DNA of 64,000 nucleotides from NCBI GenBank assembly GCA_963823665.1, contig CAWGMQ010000008.1, forward strand, positions 1,408,001 to 1,472,000. Reading direction: 5' to 3'. The translations under genes and the position numbers were made by a program. The DNA is from an uncultured Planctomycetota bacterium. Lineage in GTDB: Bacteria; Planctomycetota; Planctomycetia; Isosphaerales; Isosphaeraceae. The notes below the pieces were generated by a model. It was given only the letters and a program-made list of their open reading frames with translations, had not been told where the DNA came from and did not search any database. Of the stretch, positions 15,901 to 62,651 are shown in pieces. The number at the start of each line of letters is the position of its first letter. Position 1 is the first letter of the stretch.

Positions 15901-16234
15901 GGCGTGTTCCCGGTTGACCGGCGTGACGATAGCAATTGACTTCGGCTTTGTATCCCGACGGCCCGAAGGAATCATCGTAGCGCCGGAAGCTGAGGCTCGC
16001 AAGCTCCAGAGAAACTGGGGGGCGCCATCTTGACCCGCGGGTGCGCTGGGCGATTGAATCTGGTTGGCTCCGTCGCGGCAGTGCGGTCCAGGGGCGACGG
16101 TGGGACGGACGCACTGTCGCGAAGCGAAAGTGAGGTCTGGCGGCGCGGGCGCGAAATGGGGATTCTGGATCTGGCGAAAGTCGATATCGGGATTTCCAAA
16201 AGAGGCTAATGATCGAGTTCCGAAAGCCATCCTC

Positions 16235-17041
16235 ATGACGGTGAGCTGGAAAGACGTGCGACGGGCGAGGATTCCGATGGGGGACCTGCCGGTGCTGGCC
16301 GAGCTGCGGGGCCATGGGGCGATTCGCGTGCTCATGGCGGGCGAGGTCGCCTGGATTTCGTGGGAGCCAGGATCGGAGCTGATGCAAGAGATGCTCGTGC
16401 GACGGATAATGCCGCTGGAGGGGGCGGCGCTATATACCGAGCGCGACGGGTGCTGGTATCGATTGGCGGAACACCTGCCGCGATTCGACGTTCCGACGGG
16501 CGACGGCTCGGACTGGCCCACGCTCGAGAGGACGATTTTCCCCGAGCCGGTGAAAACAACGCGACCGCAGGGCCGCTGGCACGATCCGGTCCGGATCCGA
16601 CTGGTGCGCGATGGGGCGACGACGCCGTGGCCGGCGAGCGCGCTGCGCAGCACGCCGGAAACGCTCGCAGCGTGGGCCGAGCGGGCGACCACGGCAGCCC
16701 TCGTCGCGCTCCATGGCGCGTGGATCAGACCCGGATCTGCTGGCGGGCCGGACGGTCTCGTTCTGGTGACCGGTGCGGCGCGATCATTGCCGCTGCTCGA
16801 AGGGGGAGTGCGGTTCTGGGGGGCCGAACTGCTCTTGCCGCTGGGTTTCCGGGCCGAGCCCGACCTGCCGCATTCGGCCGTTCGCCGCGCGGCCGGGGCG
16901 ACAGCCGAGGAGCTGGCGGTGCTGGACGAAGAGGGGATCGAGGTCATCCCCCGAGCGGTTTTTAAACCACTCTCACGCGCGGCGGTGCGGCTGATGCTCA
17001 TGGAAGGACGCGCAGCTACCGGCAGGGAGCCGCCGCAATGA
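16235..17041 (+). CDS. Putative bpX2-like component of a MoxR-vWA-beta-propeller ternary system
   Basis: Pattern [28 protein letters not shown], recalled from this family. Stop overlaps the next start (ATGA) and the gene sits upstream of the vWA gene. Confidence 0.65.
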
Positions 17042-19935
17042 CATTTCCGCGGGCGGCTCTCTATCTCCAGATCCCGGCTTCGTACTGCCGGTCGATCGGC
17101 GGACTGAGGTGGGCACATTACGGCGAAGCGGTCGAGTTCCTCGAAGGACCGGCTGCCGGGCTGACGTTCGCCTTTGCGCCGGAAATTGCGCTGTTCCTGG
17201 AGGGCTTTCGAGGCATGGACGGTGGCGTGCCGGCGTTCGGACACGTCCTGCACTTGCTGTACTTGATCGGGCTGGGCGACCGGACCGGGGCCGACGCGAG
17301 CCGGTCGGCAAACTGCCTGAAACGCATTGCCAGCCAGTTCCGCGCTCTAGGGTGCCCCTTACGAAATGCCGGCGCACTGTGCGCAGCGATCAGTTCCGAG
17401 GCGCCGCGCGCCGCCGATGCGCCCGCGCTCGCCACGATTCACGCGATCTTGACCGACGGAAACTGGGTGCCGTCGGTGATGCTTTCGCCCGGTTTGCCGC
17501 TGGCGATGAGCGAGGCCGAGGAGCCGGGGCTCGAGGCCCTTCAGTTCGAGGAGCTCGTGAGCCGGCGGCTCGAGGCAATGAGCGACGTCGAGATCCGCCA
17601 CTGGCTGCGCCATGGCCGCGGGCCAGTGGGCGAGGGCACTCTTCGGCTCTTACCCGAGCGGCCTCGAAGTGCGGTTGATGTGTTCTCGGCGATCGAGCGG
17701 CGGCCGCGGCTGGCGGGTACGCTCGCGCTGGCTGCCCGGCTGGAGGGGGTGCTCTGGCTTCCCTCACGGCGGCTGGAGCGGCCTCTACTACAAGGCGGCG
17801 GCTATTCCGACGTCACGACCCGCGGCGCGCCGGAACGCATCCTACCGATTCAGCTTGCCCTGGACGGCGAGGAGTTCATCCGGCGGTTTGCCGAGGGAGA
17901 GCTGCTGTATTTCCACCGGGAAGAACCGCGCGACACGGTCACGGAAGAGCTGGTCCTGCTGCTCGATCAAGGTGTGCGCACATGGGGAAACGTGCGGCTG
18001 GTGCTCTCGAGTGCAGCGGTTGCGCTTTCGCGCCAGGCCCAGCGCCGGCGAATCGCCGTCAAGCTGGCCGCCACCAGCAGCGACGGCAGGCCCGTCGATC
18101 CCACGTCGATCGACGCGGCGGCGCTCTCGAGCTTGATCGAGGCCAGCGATCTCTCGCTGCATCCCGGCCCAGCGCTCCGGAGGCTGCTGGCAGACGCGAG
18201 CGAAGGTCGTCGGGACGTGGTGGTCTTGACCCATCCGCTGAACTTGAACGAGCCGGAGGTCATCGCGGCCGCGCGGGCCGTCGCGAGCAGCGGCGGAGCC
18301 GGCACGCGGCTCTTTGCAGTGGCGGTTGATTCAAAAGGGCGGCTCGAGCTGACGGAGTTGCGCCGGGGGTTGCCGATCGTGCTGGCGCGGAGCAAAGTCG
18401 AGATCGGAGTCCAGGAGAAGCCGGCACCCGTGACCGGAGCTTTCACGGATCTTCCGCTCGGGCCGCGGCAAACGCCGATTCGATCCTGGAAGGGAGATTT
18501 CGAGCCGATCGGGTTCCCGTTCCGGTGCGGGTTGCTCGAGGAGCTGGAGCGGTCCGAGTCGAGCGGTGCAGAACCGATGTCTCACGCGTTCGACTTCGAC
18601 GAGAGCGGGGAGCGGATTCTGGCCGTCGGAGTCGGGCTCGGTCATCTCCTGTTCACGGCCAGGATCGACGGAGCGGAATTCGAGCATCTGCCGATGCCGG
18701 TACACGCGGGTAAGCCGGTGCTGCTTGATCGTAAGGTGATCGGCGTGGCGGGCGGATTCGTCGTCGCGGGCAACAGCAGTTGCGGCGCCTGTCTGGCGCA
18801 CTACGATTTCCCATCGGCGCGCTGCGTGATCCACGGGCTCGGCAGATTCATGGCCTCGGTGAGCTGGACGTATTTTCGCGACTTGCACGCGATCGTGATC
18901 AGGCCACCAGAAAAGGATGGTGAGGCCACGGCGCTGGACCTGTCGGCGACGGGCCCGGATGCGAAGGGCACGAGTCGGGCTCGCCGTGCTCTCGAGCGGG
19001 CTCTGGAGCGCGAGCAGATCTTCACCGTGATGGCTCAGCCCGGCTGGACCTGGGACAGCGAAACCTCGGCCGAACCGGGTGACCACGCGCTGGCGCTCGA
19101 TGGGAATTCCGGGATGCTGCGCTTCGAGCTCGGGCCGGACCACCTGGAGAACTCGGTTATGCCACTCACGGACGGGCAGCCCGCGCTCAAGGGTGGGCAG
19201 ATCGTGCGATCCAAGTGGGGCGGAGACGTACTCGCGGTGCTGGTGCGCGGCGGGGCGGCGCCGGGGCTCTATTTCATCTCGACTGCTCGCTGCGCGGTGC
19301 TCGGAATGTTCCAGCAAGGCCGGCGAACGGGCTCCGGGTCGTTTGCTCTGTCACGCGACGGTCGACGCTTCGCGGTGCTCTCGGCCACCGGTGATCTCGA
19401 GGTGCGGGATGTTCCAGGCGACCAGACGGCGGTCTTCGTCACGCCCAGGGAAGAGGTTGTCACCCATTTTCTATCACTCGGAAAGTCGTGCCTGCTGGTG
19501 CGCGAAGTGGATGAAGCGAGCCGCCATGCCCACGACCGGTGCCTCTTTCGCTGGGACCGGGGGCGGCTTGAGGTGGAGCGCGACGAGGTCTTCACCGTTT
19601 TTTCGCGTCTGGGCGGAGTGCTGACCCAGTCGCGGAGTCTGCGGCGCGGCGATTCCGAAGTGAACCGACATCAGCTTCGCTTCGTCGGGGTCATCGAGGA
19701 GGGGCGACTGCGGATCCTGATCGATCGCTATAATCATTTTGTGGTGTTCGATGCGCGGGGGAATCTGGTCTGCATCTTCTACGTGATCGGAGACGACGCA
19801 GCCGCCTTGCTGGTGGACGGGACGTACTGGGGGTCGTACCGGCTGATTGGCCGCGAGGCGCTACCCGGGGCGGCCGAGCGCATCGGCCGGGCACTTCTCG
19901 AGGCCGAAGGCGGAGCGGTGACAGGTGGTGGGTGA
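17038..19935 (+). CDS. vWA-domain protein of the ternary system (bpX0-like N-terminus, vWA, beta-rich C-terminus)
   Basis: [37 protein letters not shown] followed by degenerate [17 protein letters not shown]-terminus has propeller-like strands ([19 protein letters not shown]). Confidence 0.75.
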
Positions 19936-22777
19936 CATCGTGACGATTCGAGTTCCTTTGCGGCTCAGACGAGCGCCCCATGGCTTTGCGGCGAGCGCGC
20001 TGTATTTTCCCAGCCGAGAGCCGGCTCTGCTGTTCGCCGTCTGCGCGGGTCTGGACCTCGACCCGTGGGGGCGAGTCTTCGCCGTCGAGAGCGGTTTTCT
20101 GCTGGTGCTCGAACAGCCGGCCACCGGCGCGGTGTCAGGGGCCGTTCGCCTGAGAAAGTTGACCGACGGGTTGTACGCGCCCGCCGATGCAGTGCTCCTA
20201 CCGGCCTTGCTCGACGATGAAGCGAGCGGAGTGACACGTGGCCGGGGCGTCGTGTTCCTGCATGGTGGGCGCGTGCTCGAGTTCGACCGCGAGTCCGCAA
20301 TCGATCCCGGAGCGCTTCTTCATGCACGGACCCGCGCTCGGCGGGCCTGGTGCCCGCTGCCCCAGCCGGAAGAGCCGGCCGAGCGGCTCACTCAAGTTGT
20401 TCTCGACGTGCCGGATCAGGATCCCAATGACATCTACCGAGAGATCCGGAAGGAGCTCAATCGGGGCAACTCGCAGTCCGGAACGTCGCGGCGGCCGGAG
20501 ACCGGTCCCGCAGACGAGGATGATCGCGGTGAGAACGCACGAGGCGAAGGCGAAGCGTCCGGATCGGAGACGGGCGAAACCGAAGGCGGCGCCCCAGAGC
20601 ACGCGCGGCGAACTCTGAAGAACGCGGGCGGCTCTGCGGTACACGGGATCCTGGGACCGCTCTACGGGGCGATCGGGGCGATGCGTGAAAAAATCCAGTG
20701 GGAGTGGGTCGATCATTCGGAATTGATCAAGAAGCTGGTGCGCGAGTTCAGGGAAGGAGACAAGGCGCTGGCGCTCGAGCGAGCGATCCCGATCATGCGA
20801 CCTGGCGAGGGTTTTCCGTCCTGGATCCCGGTGCGGGCCAACTGGCTGCCATGGACCCGGGCGGTCTACAACCTGGCCGAGCTGCTGCGACGGCCCGGCC
20901 GCGGCGAGGCAATACCAGTGCGCATGGCCCGCGATGACGCGGTGCGGGAGTTGATGCTGGAATATCGGAAAGCGGCCGAGGAGGCTGTGAGGCAGGGCGA
21001 CTTCCGCAGGGCGGCCTACATCTACGGCATCCTGCTCCAAGACGATCGCACGGCGGCCAGCGCACTCGAGCGTGCCGGGCTGCATCACGACGCGGCGCTC
21101 ATCTATGCGAACAAGCTGAACGATCGTGCTGCGGCGGCGCAGGCGTATGAGGCCGCCGGCGAATTCGACCGCGCGCTCGATCTATACAATCGCATCGGGC
21201 AGCACGAGCGGGCCGGCGACCTGCTGCGCCGGATCGGCGAAGAAGAGGCCGCGGTCGCGGAGTACGTGGCGGCGGCCCGTGAGCTTTCCACCGTCGCGGC
21301 AAACCACCTTGGTGCCGGAAGGATTCTGCTGGAGAAGGCGCGGCGAGTGGAGCTGGCGATCGAGGAGTTCAGGAGCGGGTGGCAGCGCCGGCCGGCGGGG
21401 AACTCGACGCAGTGCGGGCTCGAACTGGCCAGATTGCACGCGCGGGGGAACCAGGCCGCCGCTTTCCGGCGGCTGCTCGACGAAGCCGATGCGATGTTCG
21501 AGACCCCAGGCTACCCGTTCGACGGCTACTTCTACAACGAGATCGTACGCATGGCCGACGATCCAGCGCTCGAAGAGATCACGGAGGAAGTGCGAGACCG
21601 GGCGCTTCAGGCGACTGCGCGAAGCCTCCGGCGCGGACTGGAGAACCGGCGTTCATCGGCCATGATGGTCTCGAAGCTCCTGGGGCGGTCGAATTTGTGG
21701 CCGGCTGCGCTACTGAGCGACGCTGAATATGCGCTGGGAAAGGCGATTGAGGGACGTCACGTCGAAACGATCGTCCAGCGGTCGGCGCCATCGGGGCACA
21801 GCCTTCAGATTGGGCGAGGAAGTGTTACTGCGGCCTGCCAGGCAGCGGTCTCGGGAGAAATCTTCCTGGGCTTCGAGAGCGGGTTGATCTGCATTTTCCG
21901 GCCGGATAGCGAGCAGGTGGTCGAGGTACCCACGAATCACGGCACGGTCGTCGCGGTCTCGGTGGATCCGCAGGGCCAGATGCTGGCCTCGCTCCACGAA
22001 TCACACCGAGGGCTCAAGCTGTGCTGCTTCCGGAGGCGCCCGGACGGGTCATACCGATGGCAGCCGGAAATCGGAATCGATGCGGCCAAGAAGCACTGGC
22101 TGACGCCGATGCTGCGCATGGGCGTTGAGCGGCTGGTGGGGGTGAGCGACGGACGCGGGCTGATCGTCTTCGACGCGGCGTCGGGATTGGCGCGGGAGCG
22201 ACTGCGAGTTGCCGACGATGAATCGGTCGCGCCGTGGGCGGGGGTGCTGCTCGTCGCCGGCGAGCGGCGCAAACCATCGGCCAGCCGTGTGACAGTGCTC
22301 ACGCACGATTCGACGCAGTGGGTGGTGCTCGACCCGGCGGACGATCGGCTCTACCAGACCGGCTGCAATTGGCTGCCGGCTGAGACCGGAGCGCATGCTC
22401 TTGAGTCAGTTCCCCTTTCCTGGCGCCATGCCGCACCCTTGCTCGAGCTGGTGGGTGTGGACGGAAGCGGCAGGGTGCACGCCGCCGAGTTTCACGTGGA
22501 TGAGCGCTCGGTGGAGCTGATCGCTTGCCGGACGGCCACGACCGACGGGGGTTACGTGGGCGCCTCGCATTGCGGAACCAGTACAGTCGTGGCCGTTTCG
22601 CGCTCGGGTATCGATTGGTTGAGCTTTCACGGAGACCGGTTTCGCCTGTCACAAAGGGAGGAGTGCTCGCTCCCTTCCGCGATTGCGTGTTTCGCGACGC
22701 ACACGCGAGACGCACTGGTGGTGTGCTCACGGGGGCTGCTGATTCGCGTCCCAGTGCCACGGCGTGGTGCGCGGTAG
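19925..22777 (+). CDS. bpX3-like + TPR/helical + beta-propeller protein
   Basis: LYAPADAVLLPALLDDE, ALERAIP, GDFRRAAYIYG, TPR-like AAQAYEAAGEFDRALDLY, WD-like C-terminus (VVAVSVDPQGQMLASL). Start may be GTG 19940. Confidence 0.7.
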   Translation: MVGDIVTIRVPLRLRRAPHGFAASALYFPSREPALLFAVCAGLDLDPWGRVFAVESGFLLVLEQPATGAVSGAVRLRKLTDGLYAPADAVLLPALLDDEASGVTRGRGVVFLHGGRVLEFDRESAIDPGALLHARTRARRAWCPLPQPEEPAERLTQVVLDVPDQDPNDIYREIRKELNRGNSQSGTSRRPETGPADEDDRGENARGEGEASGSETGETEGGAPEHARRTLKNAGGSAVHGILGPLYGAIGAMREKIQWEWVDHSELIKKLVREFREGDKALALERAIPIMRPGEGFPSWIPVRANWLPWTRAVYNLAELLRRPGRGEAIPVRMARDDAVRELMLEYRKAAEEAVRQGDFRRAAYIYGILLQDDRTAASALERAGLHHDAALIYANKLNDRAAAAQAYEAAGEFDRALDLYNRIGQHERAGDLLRRIGEEEAAVAEYVAAARELSTVAANHLGAGRILLEKARRVELAIEEFRSGWQRRPAGNSTQCGLELARLHARGNQAAAFRRLLDEADAMFETPGYPFDGYFYNEIVRMADDPALEEITEEVRDRALQATARSLRRGLENRRSSAMMVSKLLGRSNLWPAALLSDAEYALGKAIEGRHVETIVQRSAPSGHSLQIGRGSVTAACQAAVSGEIFLGFESGLICIFRPDSEQVVEVPTNHGTVVAVSVDPQGQMLASLHESHRGLKLCCFRRRPDGSYRWQPEIGIDAAKKHWLTPMLRMGVERLVGVSDGRGLIVFDAASGLARERLRVADDESVAPWAGVLLVAGERRKPSASRVTVLTHDSTQWVVLDPADDRLYQTGCNWLPAETGAHALESVPLSWRHAAPLLELVGVDGSGRVHAAEFHVDERSVELIACRTATTDGGYVGASHCGTSTVVAVSRSGIDWLSFHGDRFRLSQREECSLPSAIACFATHTRDALVVCSRGLLIRVPVPRRGAR

Positions 22778-23649: not shown

Positions 23650-26034
23650 ATGTCCAGTACTTTTTCGTCACGTAAGCTTGTCGAGAAGACCGTCGGCGGC
23701 AAGCAGATCAGCATCGAGACGGGATTTTTGGCAAAACAAGCCAGCGGCGCGGTGGTCGTCCGGATCGGCGACACGATGACGCTGGTTGCGGTGGTGGCGG
23801 GTCCAGGGCGGGAGGGGCTCGATTTCTTCCCGCTGACTGTAGACTACCGTGAAAAGACCTATGCCGCGGGCAAGTTCCCCGGCGGGTTTATCAAGCGCGA
23901 GGGACGGCCGACCACCAAGGAGATCCTGACATCGCGGCTGATTGACCGGCCGATCCGGCCGCTTTTTCCGGAGTCTTATCGCGACGAAGTCCAGATTCAG
24001 GCCGGGCCGATATCGGCAGACCGGCAGAATGACCCGGACGTGCTTTCGATGATCGGGGCTTCGGCCGCGCTCATGCTCGCCCGAGTGCCATTCTTCGGGC
24101 CGGTGGGCGCGATCCGGCTGGGGAGGGTCGATGGCCAGCTCGTCGCGTTTCCGACCGCGGCCGAGCTCGAGGACAGCGATCTGGACCTGATCGTCTCGAG
24201 CACAGAGAACACGATCGTGATGATCGAGGGCTTTGGCGAAGAGCTTCCCGAGCCCGAGATGGGCGACGCGATCATGGAGGCGCATCGATTGAATCAGGAG
24301 TTGATCGCGCTTCAGAAGGAGCTGATCGAGGCCGTCGGTTTGCCGCCACTCGAGCTGCCAGAACCGCCCGTGGATGCCTTGCGGCAGACGATTTACGAGC
24401 GTTACAGCGGCGCCTTGCGTGAGGCGAAGCAGTTATTGATGAAGGCCGAGCGAAACAGTGCGACGCGTGCCCTCGAAGAGACGATCATCAAGGAGCTGGT
24501 GCCGACCACGAAGGCTGCCTCGAGTGGGGAAGCCGCGGGTTCCTCTGGCGACCCGGCCCCGAGCCCGGTCCCCGCTGACGCGGTGGTCACCGCGGCGAGG
24601 GTGAAGGCAGCCTTTACCGCCGTCGAGGAGCGGGTCGTGCGGGAGCTGATCCTGGACGGGACACGCCCGGACGGGCGCGGCCCCAAGGACCTCCGGTCGA
24701 TCAAGTGCGAGGTCGGGCTATTGCCCCGGGCGCACGGCTCGGCCGTGTTTCAGCGCGGCGAGACGCAGGCGCTCGTGACGACGGTGCTCGGGACCGGTGC
24801 CGACGAGCAGCGGGTGGACGGGATCATGGATGAATACAGCAAGAAGTTCATGCTCGATTACAATATGCCCTCGTTCGCGGTAGGCGAGGTCAGGCCGATT
24901 CGCGGGCCGGGGCGGCGCGAGATCGGCCACGGCGCGCTCGCCGAGCGTTCGGTGGCGCCGATTCTGCCGGGTGCGGCTCAGTTTCCGTACACGATCCGCG
25001 TGGTGTCGGACATTCTCGAATCGAACGGATCGAGCTCGATGGCCTCGGTCTGCGGTGCGACCTTGAGCCTGATGGACGCGGGCGTACCGATCAGCGATCC
25101 GGTGGGAGGAATCTCGATCGGGCTGGTGCAGGATGCCTCGAGCGGCCGGCACATCCTGCTGACCGACATCATCGGCGACGAGGACCACTTCGGTGACATG
25201 GACTTCAAGGTCGCCGGCACTCAGCGCGGGGTGACCGGCATCCAGCTCGACCTCAAGAACCGCGGGATCACCGAGGTGATCATGCGCGAGACGCTCGAGC
25301 AGGCGCGCGAGGCACGGCTGGAGATCCTGCGGGCGATGCTGCGGGCGATCAAGCGGCCGCGTGAAGAGATCTCGGCGAACGCACCGCGATTGATCCAGAT
25401 CCAGATCAATCCCGAGAAGATCGGGCTCATCATCGGGCCCGGTGGCAAGACGATTCGCCGCCTGCAAGAAGAGACCGGCGCCAAGATCGACATTGACGAC
25501 ACCGGCGTGGTGACGCTCTCGAGTCTCGAGGCCGCGGGGGCCGAGGCCGCTCGCGACAAGATCGTGGCGATGACGGAAGGGGTGCAGCTCGGACGGATCT
25601 ACGAAGGTAGGGTGACCTCGATCAAGGAGTTCGGCGCCTTCGTCGAGATCCTTCCCGGCAAGGACGGGCTGGTGCACATCAGCGAGCTCTCGGAAGGATA
25701 CGTCTCGAGCGTGACAGACGTGTGCCGGGTGGGCGATCCGATGCTGGTCAAGGCGATCGCGATCGACGACCAGGACAGAGTGAAGCTCTCGCGAAAGGCG
25801 GCCATGGCCGAGCGCGGGCAAGTTGACGAGATCGCCACGCGACCGCGGCCTCCGGGGCCGCAGGGCGGGGAAGGAAGAGGAGGCGACCGGGGCGGGCCGC
25901 CGCCGCCGCGCCGGCCAAGCGGCGACCGCGATCGAGGCCCGGACCGCGATCGCGGGGGTTATGGGGGCGGAGACCGGGATCGCGATCGCGGTGGCTACGG
26001 CGGGGGAGGGGACCGAGGTCCTCGGCGGCCCTGA
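23650..26034 (+). CDS. pnp: Polyribonucleotide nucleotidyltransferase
   Basis: [52 protein letters not shown] and S1 domains, RG/DR-rich tail. Confidence 0.98.
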
Positions 26035-26083
26035 GCGGCCTCGTCTGTGTGCGCCGCCCCGGTGTGCGCTAATCCCGCTGCAA

Positions 26084-27100
26084 ATGGGCAAATTGAGAAC
26101 AGGAAAGGTTAGCCAGGGCGGGCCCAGAAAAAAGACCGGTATCCCGGCGAGGGGCGAGTCGTCTCGTGGCGAATCCATCGACCACCAAGGTTTCACGAAG
26201 CCAGGCAGAAGTCAGGTCGAGCCCCCGCGCGCGGGCGAAGATGGCATCGGAGATATTCGAGACGGCGCGCCGGGAACGGAAACCGGGGGCGGACTGACAA
26301 CGGAAGCCTCCGGGGCTAGACCGGTCGACTCGGAGCAGGACTCGACCCGGCGGTTGCGCGCTCAATACGCGGAAATCTCGCAGCTTGCGGGGGGGCTGGC
26401 GCACGAGATCCGCAACCCCCTGTCGACTTTGTCGCTGAACCTCGACCTGCTGCTGGAGGATTTTCAAAACCCGGAGACTCCACGAGACCGGCGGGTGCTG
26501 CAGCGGCTCGAGCGGCTTCGGCCGGAAGTTCAGCGGTTGCACGGCATCCTCGAGAGCTTCCTGCGATTCGCGCGGGTTCAGGAGCTGAAGCTCGAGCCGA
26601 CGGACCTGAATACCGTCATCGACGAGATGCGGGATTTCTACGAGCCACATGCTTCGACCAAGGGGATTGTAGTTCGCACCAAGTTTGCGCGCGACCTTCC
26701 CCCCGTGCATCTCGATCGCGAGCTGTTCAAGCAAGCCGTCTTGAACCTGGTTTTGAATGCCGAGCACGCGATGCCCGAGGGCGGCGAGCTGATTCTCACG
26801 ACTCGCCGCCAAGGCCGATGGCTCCGCCTCGATGTGGTCGATACAGGAGTGGGGATGACGGAGGAGGTTCGATCGCGGATCTTCGACGCGTTCTTCTCGA
26901 CTCGCGCCGGCGGCAGCGGCCTGGGCTTGCCGACCACCCGGAAGATCATCGAAGCGCACGGTGGCGAAATCGATGTGCAGAGCGATCTGGGCAAGGGCTC
27001 GCAGTTCAGCGTGCGGCTGCCGGTTTACGAACGGGTGCCGACGGATCGGAGCGGCACGCCGGTCGAACCCGTGCCGCGCGGGCTCCCGCCGCAACCGTGA
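26084..27100 (+). CDS. Cytoplasmic sensor histidine kinase (start uncertain)
   Basis: H-box [11 protein letters not shown]-box NLVLNA, G1 DTGVG, F-box FFST, G2 GSGLGL. Confidence 0.9.
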
Positions 27101-49822: not shown

Positions 49823-50138
49823 GGTGCGCCCTCCTGTTGATGACTGATAAGATGATGTGTACTCTGCCGTCGAGACGCGAACGAGCGCGATCCGGCTCAA
49901 AGAACTGCTAGGCGCGGATCGCGCGTAACGTGCACTTTGCCATTTCAACCAGTTCCGCCCAAGGCTGCAACGATGTTCTGCCGGAAGTCTCAAAACACCC
50001 CTGATCGATTCCGGCCACTCAACCGACTTCTGGCCGTCACAGAAGCTTCGCGCAGCCCAGGTTTCCGGGCAGGGCGTAGCTTCCGCCGATCCGGCCAAGA
50101 TATCCTGAAGCCAGTCGAGCCTTGAGGAGCGCGTGCAC

Positions 50139-51416
50139 ATGGGCGTCACCATTCACTATCGCGGCCAAATGGCCGATCTCGCTCGCATCGAAGATTTCGA
50201 AGACCGCTTGATCGACTTCGCACTCGAGTTCGGCGGCCAGGCCCAGATCTGGCGAACCTGGGCCGACGACAACCCCGAGCGGTTAGTCCGCGGTGTGATC
50301 CTTGAGCTCGCACCGGGCCAGGAGTCGACCAGTCTGCTCATCTCCCCCGAGGGCTGGCTGATCGGATTGCTCGAAATTCAAGATGCCGAAGAAGGGCGGC
50401 TCGCCGGAGCCCCCCTGGGTCTCCACCAAGACCCAGTTCGGCCCCCTCGAAGGCCATGTGGCGCTCGTCGAGATGTTCGCCGCGCTCAAGCGCGAGTTCC
50501 TGCCCGATCTCGAAGTCTCGGACGAGGGAGGCTACTGGGAAACGCGCGACCTGGCCGAGCTGATCCGCAGACGAACGTTCATCGACGGAGCAATCGACGC
50601 CTTGGCCAAAGGGCTCAAGCAATTCGGACTCAGCGCCGAAGCGGCCGAGGATCCGGAAATCCTGGCACGACACGTCGAGCGGGTCGCGGCACACGTTCAT
50701 CGCAGCCTCGGCCGCCCGGCCGAACACCCCCCGGTGGAGTTCGACGACGAAGACTCGGCGGACGCGGATGCGACAGAGAAGCAATGGGACGAGCTCTACA
50801 AGCACAATCGCCGCCAGCAGGAACGACTGCGCGCGCCATCGAAGAGCTCACGAGCCGTGGCCTCGACTACAAAACAGCGTTCGAACAGGCCATGCGCGAG
50901 ATCGTACCCGAGCTCCCCGAAGACGACCGCGAGCCTGCCGAGGCGCAGTGGCTCGACGACGACCAGGATTCGTTTGAATCACTCGAAGACGACATCGCAG
51001 GGCAGGGCACCGGCTTCGACGAATCCGACGACGATCTGCCGGCCGAACGCCATCCACTCTTACAAAAGGCGACGGACTTCTACGTCGGTCTCGATAAGCT
51101 CCTCCCCGAAGACGACCCGCCACTTGCTCCTCTGGTGCGAACACTTTACCAAGGTGCCGGAGAAATGGTGGGCGGCCTGGCTCAGGCCCTGTCCAGAGCC
51201 GAAGCAGGCGCCGTCGACCCCGGCCTCCGCCTCGTTCAGCTCAAGCGCGCCCTGCGCGGCGTCGCATTCGCCCGCGGCGCCGTGTTCCCGCTCCGATCGA
51301 CCTTGGGAAAAGAAGAGTCTGACAAGCTCTTCGCCACGCTCGAGAAAATGACTTCAGAGATCGTCTCCGAAATCGGCAAGCTTCGATCCCAGCTCGCAGG
51401 CGATGATTCCACGTAA
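50139..51416 (+). CDS. Conserved hypothetical protein, two frameshifts (about 50410 and 50835)
   Basis: MGVTIHYRG start; middle frame STKTQFGP..H..VSDEGGYWETRD; acidic linker and helical C-terminus. Confidence 0.65.
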   Translation: MGVTIHYRGQMADLARIEDFEDRLIDFALEFGGQAQIWRTWADDNPERLVRGVILELAPGQESTSLLISPEGWLIGLLEIQDAEEGRLAGAPLGLHQDPVRPPRRPCGARRDVRRAQARVPARSRSLGRGRLLGNARPGRADPQTNVHRRSNRRLGQRAQAIRTQRRSGRGSGNPGTTRRAGRGTRSSQPRPPGRTPPGGVRRRRLGGRGCDREAMGRALQAQSPPAGTTARAIEELTSRGLDYKTAFEQAMREIVPELPEDDREPAEAQWLDDDQDSFESLEDDIAGQGTGFDESDDDLPAERHPLLQKATDFYVGLDKLLPEDDPPLAPLVRTLYQGAGEMVGGLAQALSRAEAGAVDPGLRLVQLKRALRGVAFARGAVFPLRSTLGKEESDKLFATLEKMTSEIVSEIGKLRSQLAGDDST

Positions 51417-51470: not shown

Positions 51471-51647
51471 CCCCCATGCAACACCGTTGCGCCCCCCCGA
51501 AAACGCCGTCATGGCCGTCAGCGCCTTACAGGGCTTGGAGTTACGTCTGACGGCACGCCTTTGGCCCTGACCGCTGTTTTGAAGTATCGTCTTGCGCTTA
51601 ATAGACTTACGCCTGACGGCGTTTTTGTCTAATCCCCCGTTTTTCGG
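51471..51647 (-). repeat. Iteron/origin-like array of GCCGTCA x2 and TGACGGC x2
   Basis: Directly downstream of the helicase-like gene; homologous to 7350-7523. Confidence 0.6.
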
Positions 51648-53107
51648 ATGGTGATCCGCCGGTTCTTGTAATCTCTCTCGAACAAGATGAACATTCCCCG
51701 GCTGCGAAGTGCCGGCGCGATGCGCCGCAGCTCGTTCGTCAAACCCGATGGTGTTTTGGGCCAACGGGCGAGCGAGCCCCGCTTCTTACCCACCATTTCG
51801 TTGAGTTCTTCGAGCAACTGAGTCGCCGTTCCCCGCCACTTGATCCCATAGCGTGCTCCTTCGAGTAGGGCAGTCGCCACGCTCGACTCTTCAATCTGCG
51901 TCGCCGTCGCTTCCTTTCGATTCCCTTTGTAGGCGGAAAGCATGGTCCCCGGTTTCCAGCCCAGCGCCCGTCCGACTGCTTCGCCGAACGCCGCAAAGTC
52001 AGCCATGCGCGGCAGCTTCGGAACATTCACCGAAGGCAACTCGCGCAGTCCACCGGCGACCGCGTCAAAGAGTGCTCCAAGAATCCGCGGCTGGTCACTC
52101 AGGAACGCGGCCCAGAACTGATCCTCGCGCCGACGATTGACCGCCCGGATCGGCGCCAGCCGCAGAACAACCGTACGGTCGCTCAAATCGCCACGCCGAA
52201 CAAACTCTTCGATTCCGTTCAAGATCACCGGTCGCTGCGCATGCACACACGTCCGCTGGGTATTTGAAAACAGCGCCCGGCCCGCGAAGCCTCCTCCCGT
52301 CGCCAGCAGGCAAAGCCCATCCGAGAGCCACGAGGAAATCACACCGATGTTGTCGTACGCAAGCAGCCAGCCGTTCACCGCGGTGACCATCATGTCGCGA
52401 GTGCTGCGAGGCTCGGAGAGCAGAGGCGCCGATTGCGGGTCGATCAAGAGCCGCACGATTTTGGCCAGCGTGCTCTTCGCCGAGCCCTGTTCACCGTAAA
52501 GCGCCAGGATCGGGTACGGCCCCGCTGGCCGCAATGCCGCCGCCATCCAGACGACCAGCAGCCGAAAATCGCGATCGCACAGGTTGACATACGGCCGAAG
52601 CAATTCGATCGACCCTCCGCGAACAGGCAACGGCAGCGGCAACTGCCCTCCCGGCCTCTCGAACTGCACGCCGGGCCTTCCGACAACGCTCCATCCGCCG
52701 GCCCCAATCTCGACCGCCTGCCCGCTCGAGTCGCCGAGGTCAACGTAATAAACCGGATCGCCGTTCCCTCCGCCGCCACCAGAGCCGACACGCACGAAAA
52801 TGGACGGCGTGCCCCCATCAAACCGTGCAAACGCCTCGAGCGCCCCGAGCACGCGCCGCACGGCGTCGTTCGAAGGCAGCTTCTGGCATTCGCGGAAATA
52901 ACCCCCGATAAGCCAGTCGCGAAACGCGCCCGACCTGAGCTCATAAACCTCACTCCGGTTGTCGACAGGAACCCGCGCAAACAACCGCCCATCCGTCGAC
53001 CGGAAAAACTGCGCACGCTCCGCCAGCCGCATGAGTCTCTCGACCGGCTCTTCAACGACGAGAGTCGTCGTCGCGATGTCCTCGGTATGTGCAGTGTCGA
53101 CCGTCAT
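51629..53107 (-). CDS. Phage/satellite-type primase-helicase-like P-loop ATPase (no primase domain recognised)
   Basis: Walker A GEQGSAKS, AYDN, SDGLC..ATGGG, RALFSN, RPVILNGI, DLSDR, LPRMADF, WPKTP..LRRIAPALR. Confidence 0.75.
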   Translation of the reverse strand: MTVDTAHTEDIATTTLVVEEPVERLMRLAERAQFFRSTDGRLFARVPVDNRSEVYELRSGAFRDWLIGGYFRECQKLPSNDAVRRVLGALEAFARFDGGTPSIFVRVGSGGGGGNGDPVYYVDLGDSSGQAVEIGAGGWSVVGRPGVQFERPGGQLPLPLPVRGGSIELLRPYVNLCDRDFRLLVVWMAAALRPAGPYPILALYGEQGSAKSTLAKIVRLLIDPQSAPLLSEPRSTRDMMVTAVNGWLLAYDNIGVISSWLSDGLCLLATGGGFAGRALFSNTQRTCVHAQRPVILNGIEEFVRRGDLSDRTVVLRLAPIRAVNRRREDQFWAAFLSDQPRILGALFDAVAGGLRELPSVNVPKLPRMADFAAFGEAVGRALGWKPGTMLSAYKGNRKEATATQIEESSVATALLEGARYGIKWRGTATQLLEELNEMVGKKRGSLARWPKTPSGLTNELRRIAPALRSRGMFILFERDYKNRRITIRKTGD

Positions 53108-54027
53108 CGTAACTTCCGTCTCCCAATCTGCTCTGACGGCCTTGCGCCAGAAGGCGAGCTCCGCCACGCCCCTCGCCGCGCAATTCCCGCCGGCCACCGC
53201 CCATCCTCGTCATCTCCGGCAGACCCGCTACAAGTCCCAAGTAGGGCTTCACTCCCAATCATCGGCCGCTCAGCCCTCCGAGATTCGTTTTAAGGCGTAT
53301 ATAAGCCTTTTTAACGTTCAAACTGCCCACCCCGATCGACCACTTCGTTTTGTATATTCGCCGCGCGTTCTTACGCCACAAGGATTAAGGGAACACATTT
53401 GCTCGGTCGAGATGGCGAGCGACGGTCCGAATTCGAAGCCAAAACCTCGCCTGTGACCACGTCCCGTTTGGTCCAAAATCGCCACGGAGTGTCTCACGCC
53501 AGGATTCCAGTTGGCTGCCCTCCGCAAGTGCCCATGCGAAAAGGGTTTTGGCGGATCCCTCAACCCTTTGCCCTTGATAAGAAATGATAATCCATGATTA
53601 AAGAACGGAGAATCGCGCCCTCCTCCTCGTTCAGAGTTCGGCGGGAAAACCCTGCGCTCACCGGATGACATGGTAAACCTGCGTGACGCTGCGCAGACGT
53701 CCCGCCGAGCGGTAAAACCTGCCTGGAGTTCGAAGCGAATCTCAGCCTCTTTGCCGCCGGATCGTCGACACCGAATTCCGCCGATAAGGCCCGCTTTTGA
53801 TCCGCCCACGCAGTCCCTCGAATCGGCCCGGTCTTGGGTTCGTTCGCGCATTTCAGCCACGTTGTCAAGTCACCTTTCGTGGGTGTTTTCGTGATCTAAC
53901 CTTCACTCTAATTCCTGGTTACGCATTTCCGACCACCTGAGCTGCGTTGGGTTCGTTCGTCACATTCTGCGGCTCACAGGATTGGCGTTTCTGGAGCAGC
54001 CAGACCTGGGGTGCCCGAGTGATTTTG

Positions 54028-59004: not shown

Positions 59005-59267
59005 GTACCTTCGCCTAACCAGCCATTCGTCGGCCACAGGTCGCGCCCCTGTACCCGTTTTGGGCGGGAAACCGGGGAGTGGAACTCGGTCGCGATTGGC
59101 AGGAGATGTTGTCATGCCAAGAACAAGTACAGTAGCACGTGCTTCGCACGGACGCCGATTTCGAGCCGTTCGAGCACGTCATGGTTGAGACGCATCGGCG
59201 ACAACCACTCCGTCCCTTCGTGCAAGATCACATGCAAAACCATCCACGTCCCTGTTTCCGTCCTATA

Positions 59268-59931
59268 TCCATCTAAAAATACCGCCGTACCCGACGGCAA
59301 TACTCCGCGTATTCCTGCCTGTAGCGCTCCTTCAAATACGCCTCTTCGCGCAAGACCTGACGGTGAAACAGCCATACGCCCGCACCGGCATAAACCAACA
59401 GCATCCAGTTCGAGAAGATCAGGAATTGCCCGATCAAAATCAGCCCGAACACCACATAAATGGGATTGCGGCTCAGCGCAAAGATGCCGCCCGTGATCAG
59501 TTTATCGGGCCCGTCTGTGTCGATGCCGATACGAAAGCTCCGCCCGAATGAGACGAGACTCCACAGCAACAGCAACAGCCCCGCCAGGCAGAAGGCCACC
59601 CCCGCCCACGAGACGACCGCCGAATGGAAAAACTCCTGCGTGCTGACCGTAGCCCACCCGAATGCCGCGGCGAACACAAGATAAAAGTAAAAGAACGCAA
59701 ATGGCGGAATCAAGAAATCGGTATTATCCAGAGCACCGAATTTCATGGCATTGATCCCGCTCCTTTTCAGCAGGAAAGCCCGGGTCAATACCATCCCAAG
59801 CATCAGTAACAGGGTCAGTGCTGCGAAGTATTTCTGCATGAGCTTCCTGAAGCGTCGTCCCCCCCAGCCGACTGGTGGCGCCTCCGTCCCCCGTGCCGTC
59901 GGTGGTTCGCGGAACGTAGAGTGCGTGAAAC
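59268..59931. repeat. Direct repeat copy 1 (~660 bp)
   Basis: Near-identical to 61993-62651; gene offset 2725 bp. Confidence 0.95.
59273..59839 (-). CDS. Isoprenylcysteine carboxyl methyltransferase / PEMT-family membrane protein (copy 1)
   Basis: LITGGIFALSRNPIY, REEAYL..YAEYCRRVRRYF; several TM segments. Confidence 0.9.
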   Translation of the reverse strand: MQKYFAALTLLLMLGMVLTRAFLLKRSGINAMKFGALDNTDFLIPPFAFFYFYLVFAAAFGWATVSTQEFFHSAVVSWAGVAFCLAGLLLLLWSLVSFGRSFRIGIDTDGPDKLITGGIFALSRNPIYVVFGLILIGQFLIFSNWMLLVYAGAGVWLFHRQVLREEAYLKERYRQEYAEYCRRVRRYF

Positions 59932-60388: not shown

Positions 60389-61264
60389 ATGCGAATGCCA
60401 AAACGAAAGCGAGACTTGCGGAGAACGGTAATTTGGGTCGACGATGACGCGCTCTATCTGCGTTACCATGCGGATTTGCTCCGCGACTATACAGGTTGGA
60501 ACATACTTGCTACGAACACATGCGAGCATGCGCTGGCGTTGCTCTCTTCTCGGAATCCGCAAGTTTCCGCCGCCATTATCGACGTCATGATCGCGAACGT
60601 CGCCCCGCTCGATCCGTTGAGCGCAAAAGGAGGATTTGCAGCAGGCATCGCCCTCGCACGGCGAATCCGCGAAATCAGTCCAAAGCTCCCCATTCTGGCC
60701 GTGAGCCTGTTGCAAGAGGCTTCCGCCTGGTTCCGCGAGAACTCGAGGATGTCCTTTCTATCCAAGGGCTCATCCGTTGTTGACATCGCCAAAGAATTGA
60801 CCATGTTGTGGGGGAGAAAACGCGCGACGATTCCATTCTCACTCTTCATCGTTCACGGACATGATGATCTGGCAAAGCTTGAGTTGAAGAACTACCTCCA
60901 GAACGTTCTCAAGCTGGGCGAGCCCGTCATCCTGCACGAACAACCCGATATGGGCCGCACCGTTCTGGAGAAATTCGAAGACTATGCTGCCGCTGCGAAC
61001 CTGGTATTCGTGCTCCTGACGCCTGATGACAGCGCTGCCGCCGCGGACAGCGCCGAGAGTAAAAGGCGCGCCCGCCAGAACGTGATCTTCGAGATGGGCT
61101 ATTTTCTCGCGAAGCTGGGCAGGAAAGCCGGTAAGGTCCTACTTCTTTACAAGGGACCCCTTGAGCTTCCGTCGGACATCTCTGGGCTGATCTACATCGA
61201 TATCAGTGCAGGTATTCCAGCGGCTGGGGAATCATTACGTCGTGAGATCTTCTCGTCTTCGTGA
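60389..61264 (+). CDS. Receiver (REC) domain fused to CAP12/Pycsar-type TIR (predicted nucleotide-binding) domain
   Basis: REC: WVDDD, IIDVMI, AVS, LSK. TIR: FIVHGHD, ILHEQP..GRTVLEKFE, LLTPDD, RARQNVIFEMGYF, ELPSDISG. Confidence 0.88.
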   Translation: MRMPKRKRDLRRTVIWVDDDALYLRYHADLLRDYTGWNILATNTCEHALALLSSRNPQVSAAIIDVMIANVAPLDPLSAKGGFAAGIALARRIREISPKLPILAVSLLQEASAWFRENSRMSFLSKGSSVVDIAKELTMLWGRKRATIPFSLFIVHGHDDLAKLELKNYLQNVLKLGEPVILHEQPDMGRTVLEKFEDYAAAANLVFVLLTPDDSAAAADSAESKRRARQNVIFEMGYFLAKLGRKAGKVLLLYKGPLELPSDISGLIYIDISAGIPAAGESLRREIFSSS

Positions 61265-61285
61265 CAAGATCTTCAGGAGAAGCCG

Positions 61286-61669
61286 ATGAATTCGCCGGGC
61301 GGTCGTCCAGATGAAACGTCTCTTGTCCACTCCGTTGAAGCTGAGGTCCGCGTGGGCAACGAGCAGGGCCTTCACACTCGGCCATGCTACGCCCTCGGCA
61401 TGATTGCCGGCCAGTTTCAATCGGACATATCCATCGTGCTCTCAAATGGGGCCGACCGTGCATACGACGCGAAGTCGATGCTCGATTGGGCTAGCATGGC
61501 CTTGGAATTTGGCTCGTATCTCACCATTCGGGCTGTTGGAAGCGATGCAGCACGAGCGGTCGCCACGATCAAAGAAGCCGTCGAATGCGGCGATCATGAG
61601 GAAATGTACAAGTTATACGATCGACTTGCGAGGGAAAACCTGTGGCTTCCTCTCAAAGAGCGCTGGTGA
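61286..61669 (+). CDS. Divergent HPr-family phosphocarrier protein
   Basis: AGGAG RBS; NEQGLHTRP (His15 motif), DAKSML (Ser46 motif), IRAVGSDA..AV; short N- and C-terminal extensions. Confidence 0.85.
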   Translation: MNSPGGRPDETSLVHSVEAEVRVGNEQGLHTRPCYALGMIAGQFQSDISIVLSNGADRAYDAKSMLDWASMALEFGSYLTIRAVGSDAARAVATIKEAVECGDHEEMYKLYDRLARENLWLPLKERW

Positions 61670-61992
61670 CGTGGCTAAGTGCCTTGCCTCCTTTCACAAG
61701 TAATCGGCCGGTTCAGCGCGAAGCTCAGCCTTTATCCTCCACTCCTTGTGTTCAGAACCAGCCCCCCGCACGACGAGCCCGCTTCCGCTACGATTTCACA
61801 ACTCTTCCTTCGTTACCTTCGTGACCTTCTGTTCAAAACCCACAAATTTGGCGTTCACCGCTGCCCCAAGTCCGCATGGTGGAGCGACCACAGCGTGCCC
61901 GACTGGTCGCGTGCCCTATCGCACGCTACCTGCCTTCCTGCCTTCCTAATCAAGACCCCTTACCATCGACGATCTCCAATCAATAATCCATG

Positions 61993-62651
61993 TCCATCTA
62001 AAAATACCGCCGTACCCGACGGCAATACGCCGCGTATTCCTGCCCGTAATGCGCGTTCAAATACGCCTCTTCGCGCAAGACCTGACGGTGAAACAGCCAT
62101 ACCCCCGCACCGGCATAAACCAACAGCATCCAGTTCGAGAAGATCAGGAATTGCCCGATCAAAATCAGCCCGAACACCACATAAATGGGATTGCGGCTCA
62201 GCGCAAAGATGCCGCCCGTGATCAGTTTATCGGGCCCGTCTGTGTCGATGCCGATACGAAAGCTCCGCCCGAATGAGACGAGACTCCACAGCAACAGCAA
62301 CAGCCCCGCCAGGCAGAAGGCCACCCCCGCCCACGAGACGACCGCCGAATGGAAAAACTCCTGCGTGCTGACCGTAGCCCACCCGAATGCCGCGGCGAAC
62401 ACAAGATAAAAGTAAAAGAACGCAAATGGCGGAATCAAGAAATCGGTCTTATCCAGAGCACCGAATTTCATGGCATTGATCCCGCTCCTTTTCAGCAGGA
62501 AAGCCCGGGTCAATACCATCCCAAGCATCAGCAAGATGGTCAGTGCTGCGAAATTCTTCTGCATGAGCGTCCTGAAGCGGCGTCCTCCCCAGCCGAATGC
62601 TGGCGCCTCCGCGTGCCGTCGGTGGTTCGCGGAGCATAGGGTGGGTGAAAC
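61993..62651. repeat. Direct repeat copy 2 (~660 bp)
   Basis: Near-identical to 59268-59931. Confidence 0.95.
61998..62564 (-). CDS. ICMT/PEMT-family membrane protein (copy 2)
   Basis: 188 aa; differs from copy 1 at a few residues (e.g. KERYRQEYAE vs NAHYGQEYAA). Confidence 0.9.
   Translation of the reverse strand: MQKNFAALTILLMLGMVLTRAFLLKRSGINAMKFGALDKTDFLIPPFAFFYFYLVFAAAFGWATVSTQEFFHSAVVSWAGVAFCLAGLLLLLWSLVSFGRSFRIGIDTDGPDKLITGGIFALSRNPIYVVFGLILIGQFLIFSNWMLLVYAGAGVWLFHRQVLREEAYLNAHYGQEYAAYCRRVRRYF

Follow-up and report, generated by a model that had tools for sequence, protein, structure and literature searches.

In the window (the whole 64,000-nucleotide stretch of DNA analysed here, from an uncultured Planctomycetota bacterium), a receiver domain fused to a TIR domain is encoded directly upstream of a divergent HPr, and this pairing recurs elsewhere in the receiver-TIR family, at three other loci and in one natural fusion protein. 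We regard a functional link between HPr and the receiver-TIR protein as very probable. By analogy with the Detocs defence system, the cassette may be an HPr-fed, Detocs-like, phospho-gated predicted NADase acting in anti-phage defence, a proposal that, taken as a whole, is tentative and falls somewhat short of probable. The cassette and its flanking repeats comprise the following features:

59265..59931, minus strand: left direct-repeat copy, ICMT/PEMT methyltransferase gene with upstream DNA (CDS 59273-59839)
60389..61264, plus strand: receiver-TIR fusion gene (P0001, 291 aa)
60428..60811, plus strand: receiver domain, residues 14-141 (codon of the phospho-acceptor Asp65 at 60581-60583)
60842..61207, plus strand: PF10137 TIR domain, residues 152-273 (codon of the predicted catalytic Glu235 at 61091-61093)
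61275..61279, plus strand: AGGAG ribosome-binding site in the 21-nt intergenic gap
61286..61669, plus strand: divergent non-housekeeping HPr gene (P0121, 127 aa; His30 codon at 61373-61375, Ser64 codon at 61475-61477)
61990..62651, minus strand: right direct-repeat copy, ICMT/PEMT methyltransferase gene (CDS 61998-62564)

The layout is the one given in the original prediction, a two-gene unit with a gap of 21 nt and an AGGAG ribosome-binding site, which we place at 61275. The start of the first gene is ambiguous (ATG at 60389 or 60395), with a clear ribosome-binding site absent at either position, and a promoter scan returned two sites against 0.8 ± 0.9 in shuffled sequence, which is not significant. 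GC at third codon positions has a median of 0.74 across the window and is lower in the two genes, at 0.65 and 0.61. Short-read contigs from 4/4 soil runs, drawn from three studies, contain nearly identical fragments of the cassette, but no contig spans the junction between the genes.

The TIR domain is recognised by the Pfam CAP12/Pycsar TIR family (PF10137) over residues 152-273, with 110 bits against a cut-off of 24.7. The N-terminal half matches the Pfam receiver family (PF00072) weakly, over residues 14-111, with 23 bits (E 1e-4) and thus under the cut-off of 30.2. Despite this score, the N-terminal half of the 60389-61264 product is, as judged by family profile and predicted structure, a genuine receiver, because a profile built from 49 sequences of the receiver-TIR family matches solved receivers (best E 1e-12) and the N-terminal half of the AlphaFold model (pLDDT 84.8 and pTM 0.62 for the receiver-TIR protein) superposes on solved receivers with an rmsd of 2.0-3.3 Å. 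A fold search with this model gave no TIR chain among the matches shown; the domain is assigned as TIR from its profile matches, together with alignments to the solved chains of Cap12 and PycTIR (E 2e-4 to 0.015). The receiver had been predicted to keep its acidic pocket, phospho-acceptor Asp, Ser and Lys, and to be fused to a TIR domain bearing the Glu of an NVIFEMG motif. Alignment bears this out: D18/D19/D20, D65, S106 and K126 are all present, as is E235, which aligns with the Glu of the NV(V/H)(F/L)E motif in the solved Cap12 and PycTIR chains. Across a family alignment of 318 rows, Asp65 is conserved in 299 of the 300 rows that have a residue at this position, Lys126 in 294/318 and Glu235 in 318/318.

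A majority of the best 120 homologues carry both the receiver and the TIR Pfam domains; other architectures include NB-ARC-receiver-TIR and receiver-receiver-TIR (P0209, P0141, P0182). The receiver-TIR family is rare and patchy. With P0001 as query, no receiver-TIR was found in 400 genomes of the phylum, and around the genome carrying L038 none of 144 and none of 400 genomes matched. Another sample of 400 genomes gave three matches (two receiver-TIR proteins with kinases and one TIR-TIR protein), and two of 120 family-level genomes matched, with the same two receiver-TIR proteins as in the 400-genome sample. No further HPr-linked locus was found in these samples (400, 144, 400, 120 and 400 genomes). 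Plasmid and phage relatives were TIR-only, with 0/1142 and 0/4 matching records, respectively, spanning 80% of the query.

The product of the second gene passes both HPr models, PF00381 with 60 bits against a cut-off of 23 and TIGR01003 with 55 bits against 47.9. His30, Arg32 and Ser64 occupy what we take to be the His15, Arg17 and Ser46 positions of HPr, and a C-terminal extension of approximately 25 aa follows the domain, so the description of this protein as an HPr with both His and Ser motifs and an unusual extension stands. It had also been described as an orphan, and it is not the housekeeping copy. HPr is encoded four times in the source genome (G000; 16.5 Mb, 91.9% complete), whose gene content we read as that of a soil planctomycete. 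One copy belongs to an hpf-ptsN-ptsH cluster located 43 kb farther on in the same contig (neighbour names are from translations); with a separate ptsH in that cluster, we rejected the window HPr as the housekeeping gene. The window gene is outside any ptsH housekeeping context, with no PTS operon around it, and its product is the most divergent of the four copies (61 bits vs 81-96), being only 34% identical to the housekeeping HPr. A homologue search with it returned no match besides itself, and the ESM Atlas gave generic HPr clusters only, under 0.9. Enzyme I is encoded in trans in G000 (TIGR01417, 500 bits vs a cut-off of 341.7), and is above the cut-off in genome G435 also.

The remaining two HPr genes of G000 are likewise orphans (L002:1477-1785 and L003:1477-1788), the former on the same strand as, and downstream of, a hybrid kinase-receiver gene, and an orphan HPr in genome G436 (L269:1462-1767) has Cys at the His15 position. 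G000 also encodes two more PF10137 TIR proteins, in which the TIR domain is N-terminal (L006:1459-2385 and L007:892-1917).

The cassette was said to contain neither a histidine kinase nor a nucleotide cyclase, and its surroundings agree. The nearest kinase detected with a small-kinase profile (25823-27100) is 33 kb upstream and none is present in the approximately 20 kb downstream; Pfam scans of 13 and 29 window ORFs gave no cyclase; and profile matches for a stand-alone receiver consist of the fusion itself and a sigma-54 regulator at 26961 only. The neighbours are methyltransferase, LRR, ECF and Ser/Thr kinase genes. The two methyltransferase copies on either side of the cassette, which the original prediction did not mention, are 97.5% identical (14/567 nt differ), with 13 of the 14 differences lying within 39 codons of the start or 20 codons of the end and the middle near-identical, a pattern as after recombination or gene conversion. 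Pure assembly duplication of this gene was rejected in view of the 14 differences, and the gene was unmatched in 40 relatives. The methyltransferase copies are probably outside the function of the cassette, which, judged from its position between the repeats, appears to have arisen by insertion or by tandem duplication and replacement; recombination between the repeats could delete it. Elsewhere in the window, three genes at 16064-22777 carry the bpX2, bpX1 and bpX3 domains of a MoxR-vWA-beta-propeller ternary conflict system, and a seemingly frameshifted gene extends over two plus-strand frames (50133-51416). A 522-aa ORF (51629-53197) has a P-loop motif but no Pfam match, and resembles the ATPase of a mobile element.

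Three scans (those of genomes and metagenomes covering 37 and 7 of 64 parts, best 80 each) yielded 239 loci, 52 of which have a receiver-TIR ORF, split in one case, the other 187 being TIR-only. Conserved adjacency of receiver-TIR and HPr had been proposed as a check on the original prediction, and we found a same-strand HPr gene abutting the receiver-TIR gene at three of these 52 other listed loci (L038, L169 and L115), together with the HPr-receiver-TIR fusion P0216. The spacing is close throughout: 21 nt in the window, a 4-nt overlap at L038, 5 nt at L169 and 8 nt at L115, where the HPr gene lies upstream. The first HPr profile matched L169 (E 7e-4) and L115 (0.046) weakly, and L038, L169 and L115 all pass the Pfam HPr cut-off of 23, with 98, 29 and 38 bits. 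No HPr was found anywhere in the 187 listed TIR-only loci, giving 3/52 vs 0/187 (Fisher p 0.0098, against controls that include near-copies and are mostly from other taxa); for an assumed chance of 0.0005-0.002 per locus, three in 52 has a probability of 3e-6 to 2e-4. P0216, a single chain found among the 27 longer or odd sequences of the best 150 representatives, is a single sequence on a single contig. A second fusion was not found among 5614 candidates with the HPr-receiver part of P0216 as query, a local profile over the 268 collected proteins gave none besides P0216, and the ESM Atlas searched with P0216 returned receiver-TIR clusters without HPr. A single-sequence model of P0216 had a pLDDT of 41. 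Viral scans with the L169 HPr recovered only L169 itself, and with the L038 HPr nothing. Support for the pairing beyond the window thus comes from three loci and one fusion only. Co-folding of the receiver-TIR protein (residues 8-291) with HPr (residues 12-127), run without controls, scored 0.29 against a mark of 0.32.

The five HPr-linked proteins occupy three branches of a 58-row unrooted tree, formed by the window protein, by L038, L114 and L169, and by L115 and P0216, the last two grouped with a support of 100. L114, sister to two HPr-linked proteins, is itself without HPr. None of the three branches holds a small-kinase locus in this tree. The tendency of HPr and kinase to exclude each other does not reach significance (p 0.11). 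A single HPr-linked clade was rejected (AU p 2e-9; quick tree, LG+G4). Since there are three separate branches and the partner HPrs are mutually only 15-27% identical, repeated recruitment of HPr is the simplest reading; an old link with losses also fits the unrooted tree. The HPr of L038 is 61% identical to the hprK-linked housekeeping HPr of its own genome, and the contig at this locus ends inside the receiver gene, so a kinase may still lie upstream. Because the pairing recurs in three lineages and in one fusion, it is likely that HPr replaces the usual kinase.

That usual kinase is a small histidine kinase encoded in the same operon in 26 of the 52 listed receiver-TIR loci, one of them a contig-edge fragment. 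The kinases are 256-310 aa long with the phospho-His 34-81 residues from the start, which leaves no room for the usual sensor domain. A stand-alone receiver is also present in 24 of the 26 small-kinase loci, the remaining two running off their contigs, and its Asp was located by pattern in 22 of the 24. The cassette of kinase, spare receiver and receiver-TIR (L010, L011, L023 and 23 more) occurs in two gene orders, each mostly confined to its own branch. About 10 more of the 52 loci have other kinases nearby and about 12 have neither partner, some because the contig ends. Two loci found after the 52-locus count, the prophage-borne L302 and L328 from a genome of the same genus, have kinase, receiver and receiver-TIR with HPr not near; L327, with a small-kinase cassette, may repeat a counted locus and was left out. 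A close relative of the small kinase was not found in G000, where the best full-length matches have 24-29% identity. At L302:1899-5606 and L330:4121-8551, the receiver and receiver-TIR genes stand behind large kinase-like genes (807 and 916 aa) whose N-terminal regions have no assigned domain. Some 12 kb beyond the cassette of L321, on its downstream side, a gene that matches PF10137 weakly (E 5e-5) is followed by one for an Mrr-type nuclease (L321:11380-12868).

The original prediction saw the cassette as a CBASS or Pycsar system with the sensor exchanged for a receiver. Detocs is a better model, because the commonest partners at the listed loci are the small histidine kinase (26/52) and the spare receiver (24/52). 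Detocs consists of the sensor kinase DtcA, the stand-alone receiver DtcB and the receiver-effector DtcC; as the preprint describes it, defence needs the His of the kinase and the Asp of the effector, with the spare receiver put forward as a buffer against leakage (Rousset et al., bioRxiv 10.1101/2023.01.24.525353). All three parts are found in 24/52 listed receiver-TIR loci, and the set of kinase, spare receiver and receiver-TIR is, by this analogy, a candidate TIR-armed Detocs-like system. The window protein likewise has the DtcC feature of a receiver with a phospho-Asp fused to a predicted nucleotide-destroying effector. In contrast, the window locus has neither a DtcA kinase nor a DtcB stand-alone receiver, and HPr is there instead; lacking these two defining features, it is not filed as a Detocs member. 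The effectors also differ, being TIR here and PNP, REase, TOPRIM and membrane hydrolase where the Detocs text names them, and the DtcA legend lists TPRs, whereas the kinase of the receiver-TIR family is approximately 270 aa without a sensor domain (10.1101/2023.01.24.525353). No Detocs-named profile was among the PADLOC matches, and the library may hold none. Detocs was probably anticipated bioinformatically in a 2020 study by Burroughs and Aravind, where receiver-TIR effectors may also be listed.

Cap12 of CBASS and PycTIR of Pycsar share with the window protein the PF10137 TIR domain and its Glu-bearing motif, and NAD+ depletion is given as their known output (PMC10952713). Here a receiver takes the place of the STING or cNMP-binding domain and a cyclase is absent among the neighbours scanned; the NCBIfam Cap12 profile scores 25 against a cut-off of 450, with NF050171/2 far under their cut-offs. 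With neither a STING or cNMP sensor domain nor an adjacent cyclase, membership of CBASS or Pycsar was rejected. The TIR half also matches five PDC-S35 profiles of PADLOC (best E 1e-47), but the best profile is covered at 121-238 of 264 only, the receiver replacing its N-terminal part, and a second gene follows; a literature search found no paper on PDC-S35. Going by gene content and domain matches, the window cassette is a candidate Detocs-like variant and belongs to none of Detocs, CBASS, Pycsar or PDC-S35.

The partner protein has the HPr fold of the PTS, with His15, Arg17 and Ser46, and Enzyme I is encoded in the genome. A parallel is provided by Bc1009 of Bacillus cereus, an HPr-like gene in a kinase-receiver cluster beside RsbK-RsbY, although no TIR is involved in the account given there (PMC9912610). 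Bc1009 was proposed to affect RsbK-RsbY phosphate transfer, with direct passage from HPr to the receiver proposed but not shown, and its deletion left sigB expression unaffected, so that it was ruled out as a SigB regulator in that account (PMC9912610). We found no report of HPr-to-receiver phosphotransfer and no paper on a receiver-TIR with HPr in the open-access literature, in line with the earlier statement that such a system is undescribed. No sequence-level observation named as refuting the original prediction was made here.

We propose a Detocs-like switch in which HPr, presumably loaded by the host Enzyme I, would phosphorylate the receiver and thereby switch on a TIR predicted to destroy NAD. 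Phosphate would be exchanged between HPr His30 and Asp65, so that the receiver tracks PEP:pyruvate through the PTS; as HPr would charge the receiver and also discharge it, this one protein would stand for kinase and spare receiver alike. Receivers self-phosphorylate from phosphoramidates and phospho-HPr is a phosphoramidate, so we favour HPr as the protein that shuttles phosphoryl groups between Enzyme I and Asp65. Receivers commonly oligomerise upon phosphorylation, and TIRs of the Cap12/Pycsar family are active as oligomers; by analogy with Cap12/PycTIR and Detocs, the phosphorylated receiver would oligomerise the TIR domain, leading to NAD+ cleavage. Phosphorylation is taken as the activating state throughout the family because the spare receiver fits it being the toxic one, as in Detocs. 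Infection or a metabolic block would push receiver phosphorylation beyond a threshold, and the outcome would probably be a halt of phage-infected cells. Given a functional link, phosphotransfer between HPr and Asp65 has an even chance or slightly better. It is more doubtful that HPr has repeatedly been rewired as a direct receiver phosphodonor, making a kinase-free immune switch that reads PEP:pyruvate and destroys NAD+ when phage disturbs carbon metabolism.

If high PEP is enough to keep HPr loaded, a simple donor would poison uninfected cells as well; some further gate would then be needed, and none was seen. This difficulty of constant loading by Enzyme I does not arise if HPr, as a true partner, acts by binding, either as an antitoxin-like inhibitor or as bait for a phage protein that would free the TIR. 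HPr regulates many proteins through binding, all the evidence for a functional link applies equally to this alternative, and four of the five partner HPrs are strongly diverged (15-35% identical to any HPr compared), as would be expected of a dedicated surface or decoy. The phospho-site of the receiver, however, is complete in every HPr-linked member for which it is sequenced, His15 and Ser46 are kept in 5/5 partner HPrs and Arg17 in 4/5, and a search of G000, at 91.9% completeness, did not find HprK, the enzyme that would modify Ser46. The tie to a phage kinase suggested in the original prediction, with HPr as decoy, gained no support. Retention of His15 and Ser46 is not proof of phosphorylation, since both residues also cap helices. 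We consider action by binding unlikely. That the adjacency is incidental seems very unlikely. The effector would then be a stand-alone or orphaned Detocs-like protein phosphorylated by host kinases or acetyl phosphate, beside one of the orphan HPr genes that are common, as the two others in G000 illustrate. The three closest homologues of the window protein come without known gene context, about 12 of the 52 listed loci are partnerless and the same-genus genome has a kinase-linked receiver-TIR with HPr not near, all of which would suit a chance neighbour, but the tight coupling in four loci, the one fusion and the count of 0/187 in the listed controls argue against it.

A rather unlikely reading, though one that bears on the biological role, is that the cassette is a metabolic or dormancy regulator, in which, under carbon stress, PTS status would gate either NAD+ turnover or a signal produced by the TIR domain. 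Starvation is naturally signalled by PEP:pyruvate, and the surroundings of several loci are in keeping with such a role. The search for a defence island at the window locus, suggested with the original prediction, found none: the window, L038 and L115 sit among ordinary genes, metabolic ones in the case of L038 and L115. A five-member acidobacterial branch (L021, L027, L028, L033 and L037) occupies a fixed site, four members lying beside uvrC and four near sensor kinases, and may serve ordinary signalling instead of defence. Against a purely metabolic function, L169 is placed in a prophage behind a DpnII-type restriction cluster (two methylases and an endonuclease), between phage lysozyme and Mu-F genes, and its sister L114 follows LmuB beside a Mu-F gene at a matching prophage site; the family is, moreover, rare and patchy, and in PADLOC the TIR half hits no profiles other than defence ones. 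The related prophages of L169 and L114, with different defence cargo at the same Mu-F head gene, likely mark a cargo hotspot; L114 also has a C13 peptidase-like gene. Elsewhere, a capH-capP regulator pair lies directly upstream of a cassette of receiver-TIR, kinase and receiver (L102:3848-7342), L009 follows SIR2, L101 follows a nuclease-helicase and L302 precedes a terminase. Defence neighbours are nevertheless found in a minority of receiver-TIR loci: a handful of 90 flanking genes are defence-like and most are ordinary or unnamed, in a count that omits 14 loci whose neighbours were read separately. On balance, a defence role for the receiver-TIR/HPr pair is moderately probable.

Bacteria have two main His-phosphate pathways, the PTS and the two-component systems, which the proposed switch would join by transfer from HPr to a receiver. 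This transfer is made testable by the two-gene unit and by the natural fusion P0216, with NAD+ loss as the readout. If the cassette is also anti-phage, it would be an immune system that senses metabolic state and not a phage molecule, and the wider family would extend the Detocs design by a TIR effector and a kinase without a sensor domain. If the proposal is true, the probable shutdown would be tied, via HPr, to the carbon state of the cell.
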